This document shows, in pieces, positions 4,456-58,016 of a stretch of 64,000 nt of DNA. Each line of letters starts with the position of its first letter. Position 1 is the stretch's first letter. This DNA comes from Deltaproteobacteria bacterium. GTDB taxonomy: Bacteria; Desulfobacterota_D; UBA1144; Nemesobacterales; UBA2774. The position numbers were made by a program, and so were the translations under genes. Under the pieces are notes generated by a model. The model was given only the letters and a program-made list of their open reading frames with translations. It was not told the origin of the DNA and did not search any database. The stretch covers positions 106,534 through 170,533 of the forward strand of contig JAVKFU010000015.1 in assembly GCA_040223695.1 (NCBI GenBank). The letters are read 5' to 3'.

Positions 4456-4527
4456 AATCCGCTTTTCCCGTTAACGAGTTTTTATAAGGACTCGACGACC
4501 ATCTAATGCCGTACTTATTCTATAATT

Positions 4528-6129
4528 CTACTTATTTATCAATTTTAGTAAATTCAACGAAGTATTCTTGAGCTTATCGGGATTCGGCATTTTTCCCAGC
4601 CTCAGCAGTTCTTCAATCGCCGCCATTTCCCGGTCCCTCTTATTTCCGCCTGCGGCCAGGACCTTGCCTTCGCTGACGAAGAAGGTAATAAAATCCTTAT
4701 TGGAGACGTTTCCCCAGGTTATGAGATAATCCCAGGATTCCGCGTGTCCGACGTAGCGGAAATTAAGCCCTGCCTGCGCGGTCCAGAAAAAAGGAACCAA
4801 GATCGAGGGTATTCCGTTTTCAAGCATGTTAACCGCGGCGTGTATGCCTTCCTGCTCGGCTGTCCGCCAGTGTTCTATTCTGACATGTTTTCCGGTTTCC
4901 ATGTCGGGATAGGAAGCTATATCCCCCGCCGCATATATATTTTTCGCCGCGCGGTAGGCTTCGTCCACTTTTATACCTCCGTCCGGATCAAGTTCGAGGC
5001 CTTGTATGAAATCCGTTACGGGCTCGACGCCTATTCCGACTATTACTAGCTCGGCCTCTACCTCATCCCCGTTGTCCAGGATCACTCTCTCAACCTTGCC
5101 GTTCCCTTTGAATTCCGAAACTTTGCGCTCAAGCTTAAAAGTTACGCCGTTATTTTCATGCTCGGTTTTGAACATACCGCCTATCTCCGCTCCGAAAACT
5201 TTTTCAAAAGGCACCGATTCCCTTCCGATTACCGTCACGCTGATACCCCGCTCCGTTAGATTGTGCGCGGTTTCCATGCCTATGAAACTCGCCCCGATGA
5301 CAGCGGCTCTGGAGATTTTCTCGGCAGAGTCAATTATCCTGTCCGCATCGCTGAAACTCCTCAGTGTAAATATGTTTTCCAACCCCGAGCCGGGAGCGTC
5401 CAGCTTCCTTGCACTGCCCCCTGTCGCAACTAGGACCTTATCGTATTCAAGCTCCGTGCCGTCATCGAGCCTGACTGTATTTGTAGAGCCGTCAAGCCTC
5501 ACGACTTTGCGACCAAGCACCGTTTCTATTCCGTATTCATCGTAGAAGTCCTCGGACCTGAGCGGCATCCATTCCTCTTTCGCTTCGCCGCTCAGATACT
5601 CTTTGCTCAAATTGGGGCGATCATAGGGAAGCTTGTTCTCACGTGAAATCATGATTATGCGTCCCTTGTAACCGTTTTCACGGAGGGCCTGAGCCGCCGC
5701 GTAGCCCGCTGCACCGGCTCCGATTATAATAAAAGTCCTTTTATCAATCGAGGGCTCCGCCTTTGACATCTCGGGTTTACGCCTGCCCTTGAATTCCTCC
5801 GGGAGCATTAAAACGAGATTATCGCCTTGTGTTTTCAGTTCGTAAGAGACAAGCGCGTCCAGTGCGGGGGGCTCCATTAAATCCCCGGTCTTCGCATTGA
5901 AACAGGCATGGTGCCACGGACATACAATCCTGCCGTCGCTCAAAATACCCTTTTCGAGAGGAGCTCCGTAGTGTGTACAGAACGCGCTTACGGCAAAGAA
6001 TTCACCGTCGATTCGGCTTATCAGCACCTTGTCGTCGGAGTCATCCAGGGCAACTGTTTTCATTTCATTATCTTTAAAATCTTCCAGTTTTCCAACAATT
6101 ACTTCTTTCATTTTCACGAAACCTCCCAC
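4528..6129 (-). CDS. Rieske [2Fe-2S] domain fused to an FAD/NAD(P)-binding pyridine nucleotide-disulfide oxidoreductase (ferredoxin-reductase/AIF-like).
   Basis: Rieske ligands CTHYGAPL...CPWHHACF at the N-terminus. Rossmann motifs IIGAGAAGYAAA and VIGASFIGMETA. A C-terminal reductase dimerisation region. Confidence 0.8.
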   Translation of the reverse strand: MGGFVKMKEVIVGKLEDFKDNEMKTVALDDSDDKVLISRIDGEFFAVSAFCTHYGAPLEKGILSDGRIVCPWHHACFNAKTGDLMEPPALDALVSYELKTQGDNLVLMLPEEFKGRRKPEMSKAEPSIDKRTFIIIGAGAAGYAAAQALRENGYKGRIIMISRENKLPYDRPNLSKEYLSGEAKEEWMPLRSEDFYDEYGIETVLGRKVVRLDGSTNTVRLDDGTELEYDKVLVATGGSARKLDAPGSGLENIFTLRSFSDADRIIDSAEKISRAAVIGASFIGMETAHNLTERGISVTVIGRESVPFEKVFGAEIGGMFKTEHENNGVTFKLERKVSEFKGNGKVERVILDNGDEVEAELVIVGIGVEPVTDFIQGLELDPDGGIKVDEAYRAAKNIYAAGDIASYPDMETGKHVRIEHWRTAEQEGIHAAVNMLENGIPSILVPFFWTAQAGLNFRYVGHAESWDYLITWGNVSNKDFITFFVSEGKVLAAGGNKRDREMAAIEELLRLGKMPNPDKLKNTSLNLLKLINK

Positions 6130-6819
6130 ACTACCCAGTATAAAGATGCAACTTCTAGATTTCTATGGAAATTTTAAAGTGGGTGCAGGAACTGGGTGCA
6201 GGAACATTGTATACATAAAATAAGCAATATGAATACCAGATGGCCGGGTACTGATAAAATGTAGTGATTTGAGCTGCTTAGATTAAATGCTGATAATTGG
6301 GATGTGCGGATAGAATTAAGAACTGTTTAATATTCAACAGCAGTATGTGAATAATAATTATCAGTATTTTGACGAGAGCATGCTAATTTTTGTAATCACA
6401 CAATTATTCCCAATCACGCGATAGGCTACGGGACTTCCCGGTGGGATCGGGGGGAGGGGGTTCGGGCGGCGGTTCCGGCTCAGGGTCGGGAGGCGGGGGC
6501 TCGGGCGGATCTTCCGGATTCGGCCTTTCGTAGAATTCAAAGTTTCTTTTTTTGAAATTCAAATCCATTCTCGTCATGAATTTCTAAATAAACTGTTCTC
6601 CGGTTCTGTATCATTACAATAATAACATAGTTAAACTCCATGTGTTAAAAAATGTCTCCACAGAGTTCCGCTTGATTACTGCGGGCAGCTTGTGAATAAT
6701 TTGAGTCCCTTTGAAAGGAATTTAGTTCATTACTTAAGATGCCATGACGATTATACACTTTGTATGTATAATTCAGCCTGAAAGCTAAGTTAACTATCAC
6801 GTAAACAACAGGATGAGAT

Positions 6820-7935
6820 ATGAGCGACAACGAAGTCGAGAACAACCAAAAACCGGAGCCGGATATTGGCAAGCTGGGTAAATTATTCAACGGCACTTTA
6901 AGCGTTCGGTCCCTTTCTATTTCAGGACTCTTTATACTGGCCGTTCTATATACTTTATACGTAGCGCGCGCGATTTTTATACCTATCTCCTTCGCGATTC
7001 TTTTAAGTCTTCTTCTCGCTCCTGCTGTGAACGCACTGAAAAAAATAAGGATTCCTGAAGAGCTGGGAGCCGCGGTTGTGCTGATTTTGCTCCTGGGAAT
7101 CCTGTCAGCGAGTGTTTACGTTTTTTATCAACCGGCTACGGAATGGCTGCAAAAAGCACCTCAGAGCTTCACGAAGGTAGAACAGAAACTACGCGTTATT
7201 AAAGAACCGGTGGAGAAGGTTAGTGAGGCAACAAAGAGCGTTGAGAAAATTACGGAGGTTGAAGCCGAGCCCCTGGGTTCGACCGTGGAGGTAAAAAGGG
7301 AGAGCCTGATGGATGTCCTCATCTCTCAAACCTGGGAATTTGCGTTCGGTGTCGCGACAATGATAATACTTCTTTACTTCCTGCTCGCGTCCGGCGATCT
7401 CTTCCTCAGGAAGGTTATAAACATCCTTCCGAAATTGAATGATAAAAAACGCGCGGTCGAGATAGCGCGTCATATCGAAAGCCATATTTCCAACTACCTC
7501 TATACAATTGTGACTATAAATATATTCCTGGGGGCGGCGGTGGGCGGGGCGCTGTATCTCCTTAAAATGCCTAACCCGTTCCTATGGGGCATTATGGCCG
7601 GACTACTAAACTTCGTCCTCTACCTCGGACCGACTGTGGGCATAATAATAGTGGCTATCGTGGCCTCCGCAACCTTCGATAATTTTTATCAGGTCTTACT
7701 TCCTCCTCTGGCTTATTTCATAATTAACGGGCTGGAGGGAAACTTTATAACCCCCATGATACTGGGCAGACGTCTTCTGCTAAATCCTGTCGTCATATTT
7801 CTGGCTCTGCTGTTCTGGGGGTGGATATGGGGCATACCGGGGGCGCTTATAGCCGTGCCGATTGTGGTAATAATTAAAATAATCTGTGACAACGTCGAGT
7901 CGCTCGCGGCGATTGGAGAGTTTCTGGGGAAATAA
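6820..7935 (+). CDS. AI-2E family transporter (PerM/UPF0118 permease).
   Basis: Polytopic membrane protein with the typical AI-2E C-terminal region (GLLNFVLYLGPTVG...PGALIAVPIVVIIK). Confidence 0.75.
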   Translation: MSDNEVENNQKPEPDIGKLGKLFNGTLSVRSLSISGLFILAVLYTLYVARAIFIPISFAILLSLLLAPAVNALKKIRIPEELGAAVVLILLLGILSASVYVFYQPATEWLQKAPQSFTKVEQKLRVIKEPVEKVSEATKSVEKITEVEAEPLGSTVEVKRESLMDVLISQTWEFAFGVATMIILLYFLLASGDLFLRKVINILPKLNDKKRAVEIARHIESHISNYLYTIVTINIFLGAAVGGALYLLKMPNPFLWGIMAGLLNFVLYLGPTVGIIIVAIVASATFDNFYQVLLPPLAYFIINGLEGNFITPMILGRRLLLNPVVIFLALLFWGWIWGIPGALIAVPIVVIIKIICDNVESLAAIGEFLGK

Positions 7936-50219: not shown

Positions 50220-51304
50220 AAAGACTCTGTTTCGATAAAGAGCTCTTCCCGATAATAGACAAGGTGGAAAAAGGGCAGCGGCTCACGTTTGAGGACGGAA
50301 TGACCGTTATGAGTACGGCCGATATAAACGCGGTCGGCATGCTGGCCGATTACGTGAAGCGCAAGAAAGACGGGGACAGGGTCTATTTCGTCGTCAACAG
50401 GCACGTCAATCCTACGAATATTTGCGCCATATCGTGCAGGTTCTGCGCCTTCGGAACTACAAAAAAGTCCGCCAATGCCTACGAGCTCTCTCACGAGCAG
50501 ATATTGTCCGTCCTCAGCGATGAGATCAGGGAAGTCCATATAGTCGGGGGACTCCATCCCGATTGGAAGTTCGAGGATTATCTGGACATCATAAAGCTGG
50601 TCAAGGACAACTTTCCCCGGACCCACGTCAAGGCCTTTACCGCCGTTGAGATTGACTGGTTTACGGAGATAAGCGGCCAGAGCCTGGAAGGGGTGCTTGA
50701 GACGCTCAGGGATGCAGGCGTGGACGCGCTCACAGGGGGAGGGGCTGAGATTCTTCATCCGGATGTTAGGAAGAAGATATGCGCCCCCAAGACCGTAGCC
50801 ACGAGGTGGGAGGAGATTCACAGGCTCGCCCACAGCATGGGCATTCCCACAAACGCAACCATACTCTACGGACATATCGAAGAGCCTTTCCACGTTGTCG
50901 ATCATTTCGAGAGACTCAGGAACGTCGAGGACGAATCCCCGGGCTTCTTCGCCTTTATTCCTGTGCTGTTCCAGCCGGAAAATACCGGGCTCAAGAAGCA
51001 GGTGAAGTTCTTCCCCGCCTCCTATGACCTTAAGGTACACGCGCTGGCCAGGCTTTATCTCGACAACTTCCCTCATATCAAGTCCTACTGGATTACGCTC
51101 GGCGAGAAGATGGCCCAGGTTGCGCTCCACTACGGATGCAGCGACGCCGACGGCACTATAATGCGGGAGAAGATAATCCACGACGCGGGCGCTCCGTCAG
51201 AGCTAGGGCACACCCGCGATTTCATGGTCAACATGATAAAGAGCGCGGGCTTCATCCCTGTAGAGAGAGACGCCCTCTACAACGAAATCAGGGTTTATAA
51301 CTAG
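50195..51304 (+). CDS. Radical SAM enzyme of the MqnC/MqnE (futalosine pathway) family.
   Basis: CxxxCxxC cluster motif (CAISCRFC) and the CofH/MqnC-like fold. Gene context with mqnP/L/M-like genes. Confidence 0.65.
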   Translation: MERILEDVERLCFDKELFPIIDKVEKGQRLTFEDGMTVMSTADINAVGMLADYVKRKKDGDRVYFVVNRHVNPTNICAISCRFCAFGTTKKSANAYELSHEQILSVLSDEIREVHIVGGLHPDWKFEDYLDIIKLVKDNFPRTHVKAFTAVEIDWFTEISGQSLEGVLETLRDAGVDALTGGGAEILHPDVRKKICAPKTVATRWEEIHRLAHSMGIPTNATILYGHIEEPFHVVDHFERLRNVEDESPGFFAFIPVLFQPENTGLKKQVKFFPASYDLKVHALARLYLDNFPHIKSYWITLGEKMAQVALHYGCSDADGTIMREKIIHDAGAPSELGHTRDFMVNMIKSAGFIPVERDALYNEIRVYN

Positions 51305-51329
51305 AAATGTAGAACCACCTTTAATCCTT

Positions 51330-52380
51330 AACGTGGTTGGGGATTACCTCTTTTTCCATCGTTTCAGCCAGCGTTACTTTGTCATTACGAGCCGCAAAGC
51401 GGCTCTACAATCCATTTTAGCTAGTCGTCATCCTGAATACATTTCAGGATCTCATCCTTGCCTTTTCTTTATCATTCCTCAATGTTTTTTTATTTTTCGA
51501 CATCACAGAATTGGCGTTTAGAAAATGGTTTATTGAGACGTAAAAATCTTTTTGGGACGATTTAGAGCTAGCGAGGAATCGGACGCCCTTTCCTATTAAG
51601 CAACAATGTAATTAGTCTCGCTTCACTAAACTACAATTCTAATCGCGGTTGGATTAAAAGATTTTAGCCTTAATAAAGCATTTTTAGCCATATTCCGTGC
51701 AGTCGGTGATTTTTGTTTCTTTTCATCAAGGAAAAGAAAATTTAATGTTTTATCTTTTCCTTGTCATTCCCGAGCGCCTTTATCGGGAATCCACTTCTTT
51801 CATTTTCAGGGGGCGTCCTCATGCACGCTCACCCTGAGCCTGTCGAAGGGCGCAATCCGTTAATCCGTCATTGCGAGCCGCAAAGCGGCTCGGCAATCTC
51901 AATTGTGTCATTCTGAATTTATTTCAGAATCTCATCTTTTCAACCCCCTCATCCTGAGCGCACATGAAGTGTGCAGTCGAAAGATGCCATTTCGAGCCAT
52001 TCGATCTACTCAGCATAAACTCCGCGAAAAATCTTCCTTTGTTTTTTACTTCCTTCCCCATATAGAGGGGAACGATTTCGAGCGTGCAAGGAATCGGACG
52101 CCACTGCCTAATAGGCACTTATGCTCTTTAACTCCCGACTCAATGTTCCCTACCTCAAAGCGGGTCAGGATGGGGGTGATCATGCCTCATTCCTCCTGAG
52201 TCCAATCGAAGGGTGTCCCTTTTCCATACTCCTCAGTCAACCCTACATAGTCATTACGAACCGCAAAGCGGCGCAGCAATCTCATCTTTTTAATCCCTTC
52301 ATCCTGAGCCCGGTCGAATTCTGGTTTAAGAGCAAATCAGAAGCAAGGGATGAGGAAGTTTATACCTGTTAATTTATAGT
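51330..52380. repeat. Intergenic array of composite hairpin-repeat units (REP/MITE-like), about 1 kb.
   Basis: Repeated modules: A = GTCATT(A/G)CGAGCCGCAAAGCGGCTC..GCAATCTC (51381, 51867, 52250). B = GTCAT(C/T)CTGAA-loop-TTCAG(G/A)ATCTCATC (51426, 51904). C = CTCATCCTGAGC..GTCGAA (51822, 51946, 52170, 52300). D = AGGAATCGGACGCC..CCTAAT (51571, 52088). Stems carry compensatory substitutions. Confidence 0.8.
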
Positions 52381-52382
52381 TT

Positions 52383-53327
52383 TTATTCTAGCGGCGTGTC
52401 ATCCATGTTCGCCCATTCAGCCATCGAACCGTCGTAAACTCTTGCGGGCGTATAACCCATCAGCTCAAGGGCAAAGGCCACGAATGTAGCGCGCACGGCG
52501 GCCTGGCAGTGGGTTACAATGTTTCTATTTCCGTCTACATCCGCCTTGCTAAGTATGGATTTTATTTCGTCCGCTGACCTGAATTTTCTTACCCCTTCGC
52601 TGTCATTTGAGTTCTCAAGGAAAAGATTCCACTCTAAATGGCTGGCTCCGGGAATATGTCCCACCCTTTTATTGCCGTGAGCAGCGCGCCCGAAATATTC
52701 ATCCTCGGAACGAACATCCAGTATTTGAACTTCCTGGTCCTTGTATTGTTTTATCAATTGGTCCTGCGTGATCATCCTGTCAGGACGTGGTGTCAGACTA
52801 ACCGGGTCTTCCACTTCGCCGGGCTTGGAGTTAATGAAGCTGATCGGTAAACCGGATGATACCCAATTCTGCCACCCGCCGTCCAGAATTTTCGCGTTCT
52901 GAAATCCGTAGTATCTGAGGACCCACCATAGACGGGATGCAAAGATTGAACCCCATTCGTCGTAAAGAACTACGGTCGAATTCGCACCGATTCCAAGCTC
53001 GGCAAGCAGTTTCTCAAATTCGCTCTCATTCGCGACAAACAGGCTTTGATTCCCATCCTGATCTATGCTTTTGACATACGCGTGTCCGGGACGGCAAACC
53101 GCGCCGGGTATGTGTGCTCGTGTGTAAGAGTAATATTCCCACGGGCAGTCAACTATAACCACGTCGGGCTCATCCCCATGCTCCGCGAGCCATTGAGTGC
53201 TTACCAGTATTTCCGGATTCGGATAGTTCATTATCTTTTCTTCCAATGTTTCTCCCGGGACAAAGCTGCTGCCCGGCCTGGATACATTTCCAATTTTCAT
53301 TCTATCAATATTGCGGATCGAATGCAA
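52383..53327 (-). CDS. Two-domain rhodanese sulfurtransferase (thiosulfate/3-mercaptopyruvate sulfurtransferase).
   Basis: Tandem rhodanese domains and a catalytic Cys loop (HCQAAVRA). The true start is probably the internal MNYPNPEIL at about 53231. Confidence 0.75.
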   Translation of the reverse strand: MHSIRNIDRMKIGNVSRPGSSFVPGETLEEKIMNYPNPEILVSTQWLAEHGDEPDVVIVDCPWEYYSYTRAHIPGAVCRPGHAYVKSIDQDGNQSLFVANESEFEKLLAELGIGANSTVVLYDEWGSIFASRLWWVLRYYGFQNAKILDGGWQNWVSSGLPISFINSKPGEVEDPVSLTPRPDRMITQDQLIKQYKDQEVQILDVRSEDEYFGRAAHGNKRVGHIPGASHLEWNLFLENSNDSEGVRKFRSADEIKSILSKADVDGNRNIVTHCQAAVRATFVAFALELMGYTPARVYDGSMAEWANMDDTPLE

Positions 53328-53424
53328 TCTGGTAACTGTGCCGGGAGAAGCGGCACCTTTAAAACAAACAAAGCCCCTACGGCAATCCCATCTTTTTTTC
53401 TCCTACTCCGATATGCCCAACATT

Positions 53425-53510
53425 GTCATTGCGAGGTTGCGAAGCAACCGCGGCAATCTCATCCTTTCAACCCCCTCATCCTAGTAGTGAGCCTGTCGAA
53501 CTATCGATGG
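53425..53510. repeat. Solo copy of repeat modules A and C.
   Basis: GTCATTGCGAGGTTGCGAAGCAACCGCGGCAATCTCATCCTTTCAACCCCCTCATCCT..GCCTGTCGAAC. The A-hairpin stem is replaced by GGTTGC/GCAACC, so structure is conserved rather than sequence. Confidence 0.75.
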
Positions 53511-53604
53511 ATGTCATTCCCCTTCCTTCGTAAAAATAAAAATTCCACTTGCAAATACGAGTATTTTAATTAATCCTTTTGTCATAACAGGGGGACACTA
53601 AAAC

Positions 53605-53931
53605 ATGAAAAACAAGATCAGACTACTTTCTTTCCTTGCGGTATTCGTTCTGCTGGTTTCAGGCGGAATATTCTTTGCGACAAATCAACCGGCCGAGTCT
53701 CAGCAGCCCGAAGTGTTAAGTTTTACAGGCATGGACCTCGAGCAGGATATGAATTTCCTCACCGGATTCACATCCGGCCCTGATATTGTCGTAGCCAAGA
53801 AGAGTTGCGGCGACGAAACCTGCTCCGCCAATCAGTGCTGCTGCCTGAACATAGACACAGGGGCTCAGTGCTGCAGGCCGAAAGTCGAGGACAACTGCAT
53901 CGAGTCGTGTAAGAAAAGCGAGCCGTGTTAG
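53605..53931 (+). CDS. Secreted cysteine-rich mini-protein.
   Basis: Sec signal peptide, then a C-terminal 45-aa domain with 10 Cys (SCGDETCSANQCCCLNIDTGAQCCRPKVEDNCIESCKKSEPC). Confidence 0.5.
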   Translation: MKNKIRLLSFLAVFVLLVSGGIFFATNQPAESQQPEVLSFTGMDLEQDMNFLTGFTSGPDIVVAKKSCGDETCSANQCCCLNIDTGAQCCRPKVEDNCIESCKKSEPC

Positions 53932-54095
53932 AGCGTGTAAATTTGTAATCACTGTAATATTAATACTTTGACCAACTATTATTAATTTATCCTATCCACT
54001 ATAGTATTGACTATCTGATTGTAATTCATATACAATCGAAATAAGAATTACTATATTTTTATCTTATTGTTATATCATGTGAGTAAGAGTCACAG

Positions 54096-55763
54096 ATGAT
54101 TAAAAGTATTCGGCTAAAATTCGGTAGGGCTCTAGGTCTGCCAGCAGAAGTTATTAGTACGACACCGGTAACCGTGTTTGTAGGCCCTAATAATTCGGGG
54201 AAAAGTAAAGTCTTAGATGAGATAAATCAATTTTGTCGCAATGGGCAAAAAAATAATTTAAATTTGATACTTGACCAAATTGAATTTGAGTCTTTCTCCG
54301 AACAAGTTGCTGAAATTAAAATAAAAAATAATTTGCTCACACCTAAACTTGGTGAATCTGTTTATTCCGATCATATAATAATTGGAAAGAAAGGTGTACG
54401 AAATCAGGTAAACAAGAAACAATTACTTGAAGCGTTCGCAAACCCAAATGCTAGGTCCCAACAATTTTGTCCTTGGTATTTAGCTTTTAATACTCTTATT
54501 CTAGATGGGAAAAATAGAATTAATCTCATAAATGAACAAGAAGCTGGTGATTTACAACATCCCCAAACCAGTTTTCAGGTTTTATTTTCGGATGATTCAA
54601 AGAGACAAGAAGTCAGAAGGATTATATTCGATGCTTTTGGCTATTATTTTGTAATTGATCCTACAAAGTTAGGACGTTTTAGGCTGAGGCTGGCATACTA
54701 TTATCCACAAGACATAAGGCAAGAGCGAGGTATTGATGAAGAAGCTGTGTCCTACCATTCAAAGGCCATGCCTATAGACGCGACGAGTGATGGGGTCAAA
54801 GCATTTACTGGTATTATAACTGAGATAATTGCTGGTGATCCGGTTGTATTATTGATTGACGAGCCAGAAGCATTTTTACATCCTGCCCTATCTTTCAAAT
54901 TAGGAAAAGAAATCGCTCGAGCTAGTTCTAAGTCTGAAAAAAGACTTTTCATTTCAACACATAGTACTAATTTTGTCATGGGATGTATTCAATCAGGCGC
55001 ACCAGTGACTATTGTAAGATTAACTTACCGTAACAGTTCTGCTACTGCTAGAATACTGCCACAAGATGATATTTTGAGGTTGATGAGGAATCCATTGTTA
55101 AGATCAACAGGGGTTTTGGCAGGACTTTTTTATGAATTTATAGTTGTTACTGAGTCCGATTCAGACCGTGCCTTTTATCAAGAAATTAATGAACGTTTAA
55201 TTTTGAATGATCCTGATAGAGGGATACCAAATTGTTTATTTTTAAATGCACAGAATAAACAAACAATACACACAATTATACGCCCTTTGCGAGAGCTGGG
55301 TATACCTGCCGCCGGAATTATAGATATAGATATAATAAAAGATGGTGGATCTGTCTGGACGAATTTTCTAAAGTCCGGTTTTGCGCCAGAGCTTGAACAT
55401 GCTTCACTTGCCTCACTACGAAGTTCAGTAAAGAAAAAATTTGAAGAAACTGGAAAAGATATGAAACGTGATGGTGGAGTTTCTGTTCTAAGTCCAACTG
55501 ACAAGGAAGCAGCCAATAATCTGTTTGACAAATTAGCTGATTATGGTCTCTTTGTTGTACGCAAGGGGGAATTGGAATCATGGCTGCCTGGGCTCCAAGG
55601 TGTGGGCCATGGTTCTGACTGGCTTATAGATATATTTGAAAAAATGGGTGAAGATCCCAGCTTGCCTAATTATATGAAGCCCAGTACCAATGACGTATGG
55701 GAATTTGTTGGGCAAATTAAGCACTGGTTGACAAATGCAAATAGAAAAGGAATTCCGTCGTAG
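54096..55763 (+). CDS. OLD-family ATP-dependent nuclease (ABC-type ATPase plus Toprim), class 1-like stand-alone.
   Basis: Walker A GPNNSGKS. Walker B/H-loop LLIDEPEAFLHP. C-terminal Toprim-like acidic motifs (FIVVTESDSDRAF, GIIDIDII). The gene is about 36% GC, against about 50% in neighbours, with AT-rich flanks. Confidence 0.6.
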   Translation: MIKSIRLKFGRALGLPAEVISTTPVTVFVGPNNSGKSKVLDEINQFCRNGQKNNLNLILDQIEFESFSEQVAEIKIKNNLLTPKLGESVYSDHIIIGKKGVRNQVNKKQLLEAFANPNARSQQFCPWYLAFNTLILDGKNRINLINEQEAGDLQHPQTSFQVLFSDDSKRQEVRRIIFDAFGYYFVIDPTKLGRFRLRLAYYYPQDIRQERGIDEEAVSYHSKAMPIDATSDGVKAFTGIITEIIAGDPVVLLIDEPEAFLHPALSFKLGKEIARASSKSEKRLFISTHSTNFVMGCIQSGAPVTIVRLTYRNSSATARILPQDDILRLMRNPLLRSTGVLAGLFYEFIVVTESDSDRAFYQEINERLILNDPDRGIPNCLFLNAQNKQTIHTIIRPLRELGIPAAGIIDIDIIKDGGSVWTNFLKSGFAPELEHASLASLRSSVKKKFEETGKDMKRDGGVSVLSPTDKEAANNLFDKLADYGLFVVRKGELESWLPGLQGVGHGSDWLIDIFEKMGEDPSLPNYMKPSTNDVWEFVGQIKHWLTNANRKGIPS

Positions 55764-55870
55764 TATTATATTCTTTTATTAAGTGTGGGTTTCAAAATTC
55801 TCAAAATCTCCAATTACCCCTTGAAATCCGGCAATTAACCCTTATATTATCCCTGATTAACAATTAAGGC

Positions 55871-56167
55871 ATGGGGTGCAAAATGTTAAATACGGACAAT
55901 TTAGCCCATACGGGCACTAAGTTCTCACGCAGCATATATATCGGGAAGATCAAGAAAACAACCTTGAGCAAGCCCGTCGATGCCCTTAATGTCGGAGAGC
56001 AGGAGCAGTATTCATGCCTCTCCGAGCAGATGAAGTGGGGCAAGGAGCACGGATACAACCTGGTTCTTACCCGTGACAGTAGCGAGATAGACTGCTGGAT
56101 GATAAGAGATTCGTCAATGGACGATCTAAACCCGCTCTTCAAGAAAACGATACTCCAAGTTTTCTGA
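55871..56167 (+). CDS. Hypothetical 98-aa protein downstream of the OLD nuclease.
   Basis: ORF with no recognisable domain. Confidence 0.35.
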   Translation: MGCKMLNTDNLAHTGTKFSRSIYIGKIKKTTLSKPVDALNVGEQEQYSCLSEQMKWGKEHGYNLVLTRDSSEIDCWMIRDSSMDDLNPLFKKTILQVF

Positions 56168-56376
56168 CACTCTAAATAAGCACAGCTAAAAATCACGACA
56201 ACCCTAAAACATAAAAACCTGTAGGTATCCGGGCGGTATATTATTATTCGGAGGCCCTGTGCTGTTTAAACTGACCCAAACCCGATTTTACTTTATCCGG
56301 GCTTTTTGCTATTCTAAAATTGCGAATAAATGTTAATCTTTTTAATAAGTTGTTTTAATTATTCCCGGAGTAATGT

Positions 56377-56703
56377 ATGAAAGAGTATGAAGTGATAATA
56401 GAAAAGCTTAAATCTAGACAGGCGGAGCTCCAGGACAGACTGAATAAAGTCGCGGAGTCGCTCAGGAAAACCCACGCGAAGGATTGGGAAGAGCAGGCAA
56501 TCGAGCGTGAAAACGAGGAAGTGGTCGAAGCGCTCGATGAGAGCATCCGCACCGAATTAAGCCAGATAACAGTCGCACTCGACAGAGTGGAAAAGGACGA
56601 ATACGGCATATGTTCAATTTGTGACGATCCTATCCCCACGGGTCGCCTGGAGGCATTGCCTTACACGGACCGCTGCGTAAGCTGCGCAAGCGAAATGGAG
56701 TAA
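56377..56703 (+). CDS. DksA/TraR-family C4 zinc-finger protein.
   Basis: N-terminal coiled coil and a C-terminal CxxC-N17-CxxC (CSICDD...CVSCAS). RBS GGAG. Confidence 0.65.
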   Translation: MKEYEVIIEKLKSRQAELQDRLNKVAESLRKTHAKDWEEQAIERENEEVVEALDESIRTELSQITVALDRVEKDEYGICSICDDPIPTGRLEALPYTDRCVSCASEME

Positions 56704-57079
56704 TTATTCCACCCCCGCTTTACGGATTTCCCCGCAAACCTGTGTTAGATAATATGACGTTATAGAGGGAGCCTGTTACTCACCCGTCCGGATCTATTGC
56801 ATAAAAATATTCAGGCACCGCTGAATCAAAGACCCGTCCGGAGCTTGGGTTTCATATGGTTCGAACCTGTATCGACGGGCTCCGCTTAAGACTAACCATA
56901 TTAATGTTTCATCCCCATGGTTATTCAATGTGACGGGTACTAACATTTCTTCTTCATTTTATAGATTACTGGCACTATAATCACGGTAAATTTTATCGGC
57001 GACTAAGAGGTATCACTTAAAACCGGCCCTGATTGGAATTGCTGTGATTAATAGATTATATTAGGTTCGATAAAAACGA

Positions 57080-57126
57080 CCCGCTCATCCTGAGCGCACA
57101 CGGAGTGTGCAGTCGAAGGATGCCAC
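57080..57126. repeat. Solo copy of repeat module C, overlapping the 5' end of the transketolase ORF.
   Basis: CTCATCCTGAGCGCACACGGAGTGTGCAGTCGAAGGATGCC. The inner hairpin GCACAC-GGA-GTGTGC compares with GCACA-TGAAG-TGTGC at 51955. Confidence 0.7.
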
Positions 57127-57149
57127 TTATTTTAAGGAGCGAAAATTCC

Positions 57150-58016
57150 GTGGGAGTGACGGACGAACAGGTAGCCTATCTCGAAGATAAAGCGAATCTT
57201 ATAAGGGAAGATATTATTAAAATGCTTGAGGAAGCGGGCTCAGGGCATTCCGCCGGTTCTCTCGGCACCGCCGACATATTTGCCACGCTCTATTTTCATG
57301 TGATGAAGCATGACCCGAAAAATCCCGATTGGGAGGAGCGGGACAGGTTTGTTCTGAGTAACGCTCATATATGTCCCGTGCTCTACGCGACGCTGGCGGA
57401 ATCGGGCTACTTCCCTGTAGAGGAGCTGATGACTCTCAGAAAACTGGGATCGAGGCTCCAGGGCCATCCGCACCGCGGGACGGTTCCCGGACTCGAAGCT
57501 TCGGGCGGCCCGCTCGGACAGGGCATTTCCATCGCGGTAGGAATGGCGGTTGCCGGAAAAATGGACGGTAGCATGTCCGGGGTTTACTGCATGGTGGGGG
57601 ACGGGGAGATGGACGAAGGGCAGGTATGGGAAGCGATAATGTTTGCCGGGAAGAACAGGCTTCATAATTTCACTCTTATAATTGACAGGAACAACATTCA
57701 GATTGACGGCTTCACCGAGGACGTCATGCCGCTTGAGCCCTTAAAGGACAAGCTCGCGTCATTCGGATTTCACGTGATAGAGGTCGGGGGGCACGACATG
57801 AGAACGCTCATTGAGGCGTTTGAGGAGGCGCGGGCGGTATATGAGAAGCCCGTTGTCGTATTGGCGCACACCATACCGGGGAAGGGTGTCGATTTCATGG
57901 AGTTCAAGCCTGAGTGGCACGGTAAGCCGCCTAATAAAGAGGAGGCTGAAAAAGCGCTTGATGAGCTTGACGAGCTGAGATCTCTCGGCGGAAAGATAAC
58001 CTGCGAACATGAGTAA
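57150..58016 (+). CDS. Transketolase, N-terminal (thiamine-diphosphate-binding) subunit of a split enzyme.
   Basis: TPP-binding blocks (GSGHSAGSLGTADIFATLYF, GDGEMDEGQVWEA). GTG start after an AAGGAG RBS. The ATG at 57105 lies inside a repeat element. Confidence 0.75.
   Translation: MGVTDEQVAYLEDKANLIREDIIKMLEEAGSGHSAGSLGTADIFATLYFHVMKHDPKNPDWEERDRFVLSNAHICPVLYATLAESGYFPVEELMTLRKLGSRLQGHPHRGTVPGLEASGGPLGQGISIAVGMAVAGKMDGSMSGVYCMVGDGEMDEGQVWEAIMFAGKNRLHNFTLIIDRNNIQIDGFTEDVMPLEPLKDKLASFGFHVIEVGGHDMRTLIEAFEEARAVYEKPVVVLAHTIPGKGVDFMEFKPEWHGKPPNKEEAEKALDELDELRSLGGKITCEHE

Follow-up and report, generated by a model that had tools for sequence, protein, structure and literature searches.

Whether stand-alone OLD genes provide broad defence is an open question in the field (PMC10568477). 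Few Class 1 OLD proteins have been tried in cells, with anti-phage phenotypes for P2 Old, Vc OLD and YbjD; Ts OLD has been the subject of biochemical study only, and the tested proteins differ in substrate and ATP need. Here we analyse an OLD-like gene in a stretch of DNA of 64,000 nucleotides (the window) and ask whether it acts alone or, as an earlier note on this DNA had proposed, as part of a multi-gene defence module with its small neighbours. The features are listed in Table 1; all open reading frame coordinates given in that note were present in the sequence.

Table 1. Features of the OLD locus, in positions of the window
Feature	Position	Strand	Basis and remarks
Partial composite hairpin repeat	53425..53490	.	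Divergent intergenic region of the rhodanese and Cys-rich genes; D3 copy at 53455-53486
Cys-rich gene, 108 aa	53605..53931	+	Backbone; hydrophobic N-terminus, 10 Cys in C-terminal third; GC3 0.63
Compositionally foreign insert in the variable slot (AT-rich leader, OLD gene and trailer of ~30 nt)	53932..55793	+	Composition, homology breaks
OLD promoter candidate, sigma-70-like, TTGACT-18-TACAAT	54007..54036	+	Consensus scan, 10/12 matches; pattern match only, in AT-rich DNA
OLD gene, 555 aa	54096..55763	+	Predicted Class 1 OLD-family ATPase-Toprim nuclease; Pfam, PADLOC, profile, AF2, Foldseek
Walker A GPNNSGKS, aa 30-37	54183..54206	+	K36 invariant
Walker B and D-loop VLLIDEPEAFLHP, aa 251-263	54846..54884	+	D255 and E256 invariant, H262 nearly invariant
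H-loop H289	54960-54962	+	Invariant; after Walker B/D-loop
Predicted Toprim nuclease domain, aa 344-497	55125..55586	+	PF20469 at aa 344-412, conserved acidic residues
Promoter-like site of 94-aa ORF, TTGAAA-16/18-TATATT/TATTAT	55821..55850	+	Consensus scan and alignment
94-aa ORF (98-aa ORF of the earlier note, 55871-56167)	55883..56167	+	Backbone, lineage-restricted; GC3 0.65
DksA/TraR-family C4 zinc-finger gene, 108 aa	56377..56703	+	Backbone; Pfam, GC3 0.60
Partial repeat copy, same family	57079..57128	.	Between DksA and transketolase; D4, 90% identical to 51943-51992

Family membership and catalytic residues

The OLD-family ATPase-Toprim identity assigned in the earlier note was borne out by Pfam, PADLOC, a family profile and Foldseek. 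The product matched the Pfam families AAA_21 (2e-15), AAA_15 (4e-15) and OLD-like_TOPRIM (6e-5), and its top PADLOC model was Old (1.6e-19), with aa 250-497 aligned to model positions 286-540. Pairwise similarity to Ts OLD, the structural archetype of Class 1 (6P74), was undetectable, and phmmer with the OLD protein returned no PDB match; the family profile, however, matched Thermus OLD with an E value of 2.1e-11, and the alignment (228-418 to 245-439 of 6P74) spans Walker B through DxD. The AF2 model, which is a confident one (pLDDT 88.9), yielded full-length Foldseek matches with a probability of 1.00 to solved OLD structures of three classes, namely 9LPA (Eco8 OLD), 6P74 (Ts OLD; E 5e-11), and 8X5I and 8SM3 (GajA). 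The TM-scores were just 0.34-0.42, probably because domain orientations differ. Judged from sequence and model together, the 555-aa product is an OLD-family ATPase-Toprim protein with a predicted N-terminal SMC/Rad50-like ABC ATPase that carries a helical insertion and is fused to a C-terminal Toprim domain, the same arrangement as in the slightly shorter Ts OLD (528 aa).

All features of the N-terminal ABC-type ATPase (Walker A Lys, Walker B acidic residues, D-loop and H-loop His) are present, including the Walker A sequence and the LLIDEPEAFLHP motif (aa 252-263) pointed out in the earlier note, and the spacing of Walker B, D-loop and H-loop agrees with E276/H283/H310 of Ts OLD. PF20469 (cutoff 23.2 bits) matched aa 344-412 with 23.9 bits, and 37 of 43 diverse members of the OLD family also matched it (best E 6e-11). 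Invariant in the family alignment are K36, D255, E256, H289, E353, D357, D410 and D412; H262, E492 and E494 are nearly so. The metal-A candidates E353, D410 and D412 are placed by the profile match on Ts E377/D431/D433, and D357, E492 and E494 are, by their sequence pattern, candidate metal-B residues. Equivalents of Ts OLD K34, E276, H283, H310, E377, D381, D431 and D433 are all kept.

The distance from DxD to the metal-B acidic pair is ~80 residues, versus 45 in Ts OLD, owing to a helical insert of ~60 aa between DxD and ExE. The E492-x-E494 pair has P2-like spacing. In P2 and Ts OLD a Lys or Arg (K550 in P2 Old) follows the metal-B Glu at a distance of seven residues; the window clade does not keep it at that spacing (Q501 in the window). 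The full set of ATPase and candidate two-metal Toprim residues appears to be retained, in agreement with the residues that Ts and P2 OLD require (PMC7049728).

A foreign gene in a variable slot

The OLD gene has a G + C content of 37.5% and a GC3 of 0.27, and its flanks have 25.0% (53932-54095) and 30.8% (55764-55870), versus 47-54% GC and GC3 values of 0.53-0.65 in the neighbouring genes and 48.2% GC in the whole window. Foreign composition is limited to the gene and the DNA directly next to it (about 53932-55793). Homology to OLD-less relatives breaks off at 53913 and restarts at 55794 (L014), 55795 (L066) or 55801 (L065). Composition and homology breaks at the edges of the insert both support the earlier proposal of horizontal acquisition; by these measures the gene entered a chromosome segment that is conserved apart from this variable slot.

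In related genomes this slot, which follows the Cys-rich gene and precedes the promoter of the 94-aa ORF, holds other genes: one from the AF_1680 family, AT-rich and with an Rx4H motif, an unannotated 285-aa family and a 154-aa membrane protein. These occupants could be unrecognised defence genes. Comparison of the OLD genes of the window and its closest relative (L001) gave a pN of 0.148 and a pS of 0.77, indicative of purifying selection. GC3 is 0.26-0.27 in both genes while synonymous sites are saturated, so that a simple model of one old insertion is insufficient.

Class, distribution and probable role

The OLD gene of the window is surrounded by a rhodanese gene, the Cys-rich gene, the 94-aa ORF, DksA and transketolase, and no helicase, reverse transcriptase, ncRNA or AriB was found near it. 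Clustering of the ORFs within 3 kb of 46 OLD loci revealed no recurring neighbour family, except transposases in five loci. The lack of a helicase, retron or AriB partner, together with that of a conserved neighbour, identifies the gene, as far as gene content can tell, as a stand-alone Class 1 OLD. The class-1, stand-alone assignment of the earlier note, based on the missing UvrD-like partner, therefore stands, but its label 'Gabija' is wrong, since Gabija is Class 2.

The other classes were considered in turn. GajA shares the two-domain fold (Foldseek E 6e-9, profile E 1e-4), but the GajA models of PADLOC scored far lower than the Old model, and no UvrD-like ORF (the GajB helicase gene that adjoins GajA in Gabija) was detected within 5 kb in the window or beside the homologues across the 46 loci. 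For a Class 3 retron-Eco8 system, the reverse transcriptase ORF was missing, the NCBIfam model retron_eff_Eco8 scored 33 bits (cutoff 250), and Rfam found nothing in 51200-57300, including no retron msr/msd ncRNA. Unlike in PARIS (Class 4), where they are split into AriA and AriB, ATPase and Toprim are fused in one polypeptide, which had no DUF4435 match and was better matched by Old than by the AriA and AriAB models of PADLOC.

The gene is of an already known kind, the single-gene OLD anti-phage system, and belongs to a large uncharacterised clade (>1000 clusters at 50% identity). Most probably, it encodes an intact, horizontally acquired Class 1 nuclease that guards against phages or other mobile elements without involvement of its neighbours, the defence role being that described for other Class 1 OLDs (PMC12392090, PMC12445682, PMC13261556). 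A working model can be drawn by analogy with P2 Old, Vc OLD and Ts OLD. Acting alone, an ATPase dimer would sense an infection-associated cue and bind or hydrolyse ATP, which would license nucleic acid cleavage by the Toprim domain; the substrate might be DNA, nicked or degraded as by Vc and Ts OLD, or a tRNA, cut as by P2 Old. Phage replication would be halted, possibly at the expense of the cell.

Several properties of the clade would also suit a function outside defence that benefits the host, whether through DNA or chromatin transactions or through survival of stress. Its members are unusually conserved (54-77% identity over many phyla), purifying selection is strong, and almost no members were found in the phage and plasmid collections searched (tblastn against 50,697 phage records gave no P2-Old-like match). 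The neighbours in the window are housekeeping genes, so that the locus cannot be recognised as a defence island, and archaeal Cran1 provides a precedent for non-defence functions of OLD-family proteins (PMC12796447). We nevertheless consider such a role unlikely. The distribution is patchy, with close relatives lacking OLD at the same locus, the composition is foreign, and elsewhere the gene occurs beside TA genes or an RM system, in ICE/T4SS contexts, with integrases and in integron arrays, as expected of accessory defence cargo and not of a core function.

The mobile contexts could instead be read as those of a chiefly selfish or competitive weapon, a toxic nuclease serving to stabilise the cassette or element that carries it, or to exclude rival elements; the window copy would be a stranded remnant of such an element. 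About one-fifth of the related OLD loci are canonical integron cassettes sharing one attC, and this cassette ranges from Gammaproteobacteria to Bacteroidota and CPR Gracilibacteria; cassettes are bounded by four successive attC sites in L038, and attC-bounded OLD cassettes also occur in L033, L035, L040 and others. Further loci lie in transposase or ICE/T4SS contexts, and interference between phages is what P2 Old itself takes part in (PMC12445682). At the OLD genes of the window and L001, however, neither attC-like flanks nor an integrase or transposase were found, and purifying selection has kept the gene intact for long enough that synonymous sites became saturated, which argues for a benefit to the host. 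This reading is very unlikely, and the line between it and 'defence' is partly semantic.

P2 Old, the founding member of Class 1, is likewise a solo gene, but the window clade is chromosomal or integron-borne and did not turn up in the phage collection; P2 Old is triggered by inhibition of RecBCD and targets tRNA-Thr(UGU) (PMC12445682). Vc OLD and E. coli YbjD/OldB, which are likewise bacterial stand-alone OLD genes, are the precedent for protection against phage by one OLD gene (PMC12392090, PMC13261556). Vc OLD is a nickase requiring both active sites, whereas the Toprim domain of YbjD is dispensable for its phenotype (PMC13261556), and the behaviour of the window clade is therefore not predictable from either. 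Because of the great distance from every characterised OLD, substrate and trigger are not transferable with confidence. More tentatively, the window gene may belong to a distinct solo clade with a universally conserved substrate or trigger, and the slot may be a lineage-specific defence hotspot; a conserved target, such as tRNA in the case of P2 Old, would account for the portability and conservation of the clade.

The locus is a clean natural example, with a single-gene insertion, defined junctions, syntenic genomes without OLD at that site and an apparently complete catalytic set. It belongs to a very large, highly conserved clade that is spread in part by integrons, and that clade is for these reasons a sensible choice for cloning and functional tests.

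Neighbouring genes, hairpin repeats and spacer

The small genes around the OLD gene belong to the conserved segment. Orthologues of the Cys-rich gene (50-59% identity) sit at the corresponding position in L001, L014 and L065, the latter two of which lack OLD. The 98-aa ORF of the earlier note exists, but its start is most likely the second ATG (55883), as in the NCBI annotation and in each of the ten homologue clusters; no further clusters were found among 5.8 billion proteins. DksA/TraR (Pfam DksA-like_N 2e-15, zf-dskA_traR 2e-10) is syntenic in all relatives and comes after the 94-aa ORF wherever downstream DNA is present, with OLD or without.

It is therefore highly improbable that OLD, these three genes and the 400-bp spacer (56704-57104) form one repeat-bracketed defence module acquired as a unit, even though the four genes adjoin on one strand and OLD, the 94-aa ORF and DksA also adjoin in L001: only OLD is foreign by composition (GC3 of its companions 0.60-0.65), the companions keep their order in the OLD-less L014-L022, L065 and L066, none was found beside OLD in 44 other OLD loci, the co-occurrence in L001 reflects shared synteny, a promoter-like sequence belonging to the 94-aa ORF alone (CCCTTGAAA...CTTAT...TAT) is kept, with or without OLD, across L001, L014, L019 and the window, the repeats lie off the OLD junctions, and the spacer is not conserved. 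The earlier note had itself named companions that never accompany the ATPase in other genomes as grounds for dismissing the module; this is the pattern observed, with L001, where synteny is shared, as the single exception. The three genes are probably separately transcribed residents of the lineage with no part in the OLD system; the module reading arose from adjacency alone, and they need no pursuit as defence components.

In the spacer, the direct repeats ACCCGTCCGGA reported earlier are present, in exactly two copies in the 64 kb (56782 and 56832), but the role in a module ascribed to this stretch falls away; no homologue or pseudogene remnant was found in it, and its sole conserved item is a promoter-like site for transketolase. 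That gene (288 aa) most likely starts near 57150, which makes the repeat upstream of it intergenic.

The hairpin repeats have their main cluster at 51364-52309, and the copy beside the Cys-rich gene contains a hairpin at 53428-53457. Their hairpins fold better than shuffled sequences (z -2.4 to -3.6; -3.0 for the downstream copy). The copies described in the earlier note are real, but instead of marking the OLD insertion (junctions at 53932 and about 55794) they are sited at two other synteny breakpoints. One lies beside a segment with rhodanese and repeats that is absent from relatives; at the other, relatives carry STAS-SpoIIE-HATPase (kinase) genes between DksA and transketolase.

Identity and class of the OLD protein

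Here the core identification of the 555-aa gene (the OLD gene) as a horizontally acquired gene of the OLD-family ATPase-Toprim type, Class 1 (solo), is supported; a multi-gene module and a role of the hairpin repeats are not supported. The encoded protein carries GPNNSGKS and LLIDEPEAFLHP. The profile and PADLOC searches proposed in the earlier note were run on the region and all matched: Pfam returned AAA_21 (2e-15), AAA_15 (4e-15) and, at aa 344-412, OLD-like_TOPRIM (23.9 bits vs a cutoff of 23.2), and the top PADLOC model was 'Old' (1.6e-19), which ranked above the AriA, GajA, PtuA and AbiL models that cover the ATPase domain only. Pairwise single-sequence phmmer against the PDB gave zero matches to solved OLD proteins because the protein is too diverged, and a profile built on close relatives (A1; identity 54% or higher) met the Thermus scotoductus OLD (Ts OLD; 6P74) via the P-loop only (E 0.002). 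A broader profile of 43 representatives at 50% identity was needed to detect 6P74 beyond the P-loop; its best PDB sequence was Ts OLD (E 2.1e-11), with an alignment spanning Walker B to the Toprim DxD, and it also matched GajA (E 1e-4). PF20469 was matched by 37 of these 43 representatives. The AlphaFold2 model is confident (pLDDT 88.9, pTM 0.87), and its full-length Foldseek matches were retron-Eco8 OLD, Ts OLD and GajA (E 1.6e-11 to 6e-9). OLD-family identity is thus borne out by Pfam, PADLOC, the family profile and Foldseek. The protein belongs to a very large, uncharacterised clade of the known OLD kind: 3426 related clusters were found among 1.84 billion cluster representatives, of which 1034 lie below 1e-30, most of these spanning the full length (about 555 aa).

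K36, D255, E256, H289, E353, D357, D410 and D412 are invariant among close as well as distant relatives, and H262, E492 and E494 nearly so. When mapped by profile alignment and motif spacing, these residues correspond to those required by mutagenesis in Ts OLD (K34, E276, H283, H310; metal A E377/D431/D433; metal B D381/S478/E480) and to the P2 Old counterparts (metal A E398/D453/D455; E402/D541/E543) (PMC7049728). The gap of 80 residues between DxD and ExE, which forms a helical insert in the AlphaFold2 model, is like that of P2 Old and unlike that of Ts OLD. The basic residue 7 positions past the metal-B Glu is not conserved at that spacing in the clade, so that the metal-B site is a pattern-based assignment only. 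The ABC-ATPase plus Toprim enzyme is intact, and every residue for ATP hydrolysis and metal-A chemistry is present.

Near the gene, the ORF listing, Pfam and Rfam revealed neither a UvrD-like helicase nor a reverse transcriptase, a retron RNA or a separate AriB, and the Eco8-effector model of NCBIfam scored far under its cutoff. Rfam detected no RNA family over 51200-57300; a lone sub-threshold snoRNA match in that interval was rejected as noise. At 46 loci with relatives of 54-77% identity, all ORFs of 50 aa or longer lying no further than 3 kb from the OLD gene were clustered. Only one neighbour family, an rve-type transposase (five loci), recurred at more than three loci, and the remaining shared neighbours reflect synteny among closely related genomes. 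Since Class 1 OLD genes are stand-alone by definition (PMC10568477, PMC7049728), the lack of a recurrent partner places the gene in Class 1. Of the label 'class-1 stand-alone Gabija/OLD-type', the solo Class 1 assignment without a UvrD-like partner holds; 'Gabija-type' is incorrect.

By analogy with P2 Old, the Vibrio cholerae OLD (Vc OLD), Ts OLD and YbjD, the protein would act alone against phages or other invaders, as a dimeric ATPase in which ATP binding or hydrolysis gates a Toprim nuclease that would cut DNA or tRNA (PMC12445682, PMC12392090, PMC7049728, PMC13261556). Because the characterised Class 1 enzymes differ among themselves and every one of them is far removed from this clade, neither substrate nor trigger can be carried over to this protein with confidence.

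A variable slot among resident genes

Every feature named in the earlier note was found in the sequence by ORF listing, composition and repeats.

Features of the locus and contents of the variable slot (L numbers denote homologous or syntenic loci in other genomes; L001 is the closest relative of the window)
Locus	Feature	Coordinates	Strand	Remark
Window	Hairpin repeat cluster	51364-52309		three tandemly spaced copies
Window	Rhodanese gene, two-domain	52383-53327	minus	flanks the small-gene/OLD group
Window	Partial repeat copy	53455-53486
Window	Cys-rich ORF, 108 aa	53605-53931	+	ORF listing
Window	Slot: OLD alone	53932-55793		same in independent assembly of the same organism
Window	OLD ORF, 555 aa	54096-55763	+	ORF listing
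Window	ORF of 98 aa as first read	55871-56167	+	ORF listing; start revised to 55883
Window	DksA/TraR ORF, 108 aa	56377-56703	+	ORF listing
Window	ACCCGTCCGGA, two exact copies	56782-56792; 56832-56842		50 nt apart
Window	Partial repeat copy	57079-57128
Window	Split transketolase	from about 57150		other flank of the group
L001	Slot: 295-aa gene, AT-rich 154-aa membrane-protein gene (opposite strand), OLD 77% identical	4493-7700		Thermodesulfobacteriota MAG
L014-L018, L065	Slot: unannotated 285-aa homologue of the 295-aa gene of L001	L014:4975-5832		without OLD
L019-L021	Slot: AT-rich (GC 0.31) 255-aa gene	L019:1-771; L020:235-1002		precomputed Pfam family AF_1680
L066	Slot: other AT-rich DNA	1-137

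The OLD gene has a GC content of 37.5% and a GC3 of 0.27, with immediate flanks of 25% and 31% GC; GC3 is 0.60-0.65 in the Cys-rich, 98-aa, DksA and transketolase genes. In blastn comparisons with OLD-less relatives, the match to the window ends within the Cys-rich gene at 53913 and restarts at 55794-55801, about 30 nt past the OLD stop codon. The proposed horizontal acquisition is borne out by the foreign composition and these junctions, and the comparison shows that the imported DNA is that of about 53932-55793 only.

The 98-aa ORF is present, most likely with its start at 55883 and a length of 94 aa; it is lineage-restricted, with only ten homologue clusters among 5.8 billion proteins. Contigs of these homologues share the order UbiA-like, UbiX-like, UbiD-like, MqnC-like radical SAM, Cys-rich gene, variable slot, 94-aa ORF and DksA/TraR, followed in relatives by STAS, SpoIIE phosphatase, anti-sigma-type kinase and, further on, transketolase. 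The DksA/TraR gene is next after the 94-aa ORF wherever downstream DNA is present (window 55883-56703, L014, L019, L065, L066). In most relatives the partner-switching module (STAS/SpoIIE-phosphatase/anti-sigma-kinase) comes after DksA; the window genome is without it, DksA being followed by a 400-bp spacer and then transketolase. All the genomes, with or without OLD, have a promoter-like TTGAAA-N16/18-TATATT(AT) (55821-55850) ahead of the 94-aa ORF. Backbone synteny without OLD, this site and native GC3 show the Cys-rich, 94-aa and DksA/TraR genes to be lineage residents with putative transcription signals of their own, not companions of OLD; the synteny in OLD-less relatives and the native GC3 also dispose of the multi-gene defence module suggested in the earlier note, an outcome that the note had itself named as refuting it.

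The slot, which runs from the Cys-rich gene to the promoter of the 94-aa ORF, may represent a defence hotspot specific to this lineage. Searched against local Pfam and PADLOC libraries, the genes that fill it in relatives (285, 295, 255 and 154 aa) had no significant match; the 255-aa gene bears an IRNTSAHP (Rx4H, HEPN-like) motif.

The Cys-rich protein (also at L001:4093-4425 and L014:4575-4898) has a hydrophobic N-terminus, 10 Cys and the invariant C-terminal motif CG.ETCS..QCCCLN.(D/E)TGAQCCRP....NC(I/V)ESCK...PC, and matched no family in Pfam, NCBIfam or PADLOC. Its gene is always just downstream of a menaquinone (futalosine-type) gene cluster.

Selection, distribution and integron cassettes

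Between the OLD copies of the window and L001 (6001-7668), pN is 0.148 and pS is 0.77, with synonymous sites saturated, which shows purifying selection on a presumably functional gene. These copies apparently share one insertion junction, and a single ancestral insertion is tentatively favoured over independent acquisitions: the right junction is shared and the copies are closest relatives (77% identity), although GC3 is unameliorated in both. It remains at 0.26-0.27, next to about 0.6 in neighbouring genes, despite the synonymous saturation; alleles at the slot may have been replaced repeatedly, or composition itself may be selected. The analysis shows the OLD enzyme to be solo and mobile, with selection acting on it.

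Relatives at 54-71% identity and of nearly constant length span many phyla (by record titles), with hosts in Cyanobacteria, Acidobacteriota, Alpha-, Beta- and Gammaproteobacteria, Bacteroidota, Ignavibacteria, Planctomycetota, Gemmatimonadota, Nitrospirota, Nitrospinota, Deinococcota, Bacillota, Spirochaetes and CPR Gracilibacteria. The GC content of the gene is 36-41% in most hosts (host GC 33-56%) and 43-58% in several, mostly higher-GC, hosts. Among 50,697 phage records the clade is essentially missing (best match 29% identity, partial), and plasmids seldom carry it (9 records, best 45%). One copy in an Acidobacteriota MAG (L062:5001-6666; 65% identical) has 8 stop codons in straight translation, which could mean either a frameshifted pseudogene or a fault in the assembly.

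The OLD gene takes the form of a canonical integron cassette at about a fifth of the related loci (L038:4914-7815; L008, L011/L034, L033, L035, L037, L040, L044; OLD clade 61-66% identical), for which no report was found in the literature searched. The Thiomicrorhabdus locus (L038) consists of attC (GCCTAAC...GTTAGTTGC), OLD, attC (TAACTAAC...GTTATGC) and two small cassettes, each with its own attC after it, giving an array of four attC sites. GTTAGTTGC lies 30-35 nt 5' of the ATG in Oceanobacter, Thiohalomonadaceae, Saprospiraceae, Roseivirga, Gracilibacteria and uncultured gammaproteobacterium loci, with the variant GTTAGTTCC instead at the Pseudohongiella locus; the complementary GCAACTAAC, or a degenerate form, overlaps the OLD stop codon in most of these loci. 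The conserved attC (GCAACTAAC...GTTAGTTGC) recurs in Gammaproteobacteria, Bacteroidota and a CPR Gracilibacteria MAG. No attC was found at the OLD copy of the window. The whole window contains zero CTAAC...GTTAG pairs because the words CTAA, TTAG and CTAG are strongly under-represented (CTAG: 39 observed vs about 250 expected in 64 kb).

Hairpin repeats and the spacer

The composite hairpin repeats fold better than shuffled sequence. Neither partial copy falls on an OLD junction, which speaks against the former view of the repeats as markers of the OLD insertion. The upstream copy (53425-53490) adjoins a segment (51305-53530; repeat cluster and rhodanese gene) that relatives lack between the radical-SAM and Cys-rich genes, an interval of about 300 bp in relatives vs about 2.3 kb in the window; the independent assembly of this organism is interrupted just before the Cys-rich gene. 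The downstream copy occupies the position where relatives have the STAS-SpoIIE-kinase genes. Both copies thus lie at synteny breaks other than those of OLD, so that what the repeats mark is rearrangement breakpoints elsewhere.

Apart from the repeat, the 400-bp spacer (56704-57104) is present only once in the window; it has no homologue in any related locus examined, and tblastx gave no trace of STAS, SpoIIE or kinase remnants and no detectable pseudogene. As the earlier note had described, ACCCGTCCGGA is repeated there, and neither strand of the window has a further copy; the two copies lie in non-conserved spacer and are not themselves conserved, and the proposed part of the spacer in a module was not upheld. 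A promoter-like site at the 3' end of the spacer (57033-57062) is conserved upstream of transketolase in L066.
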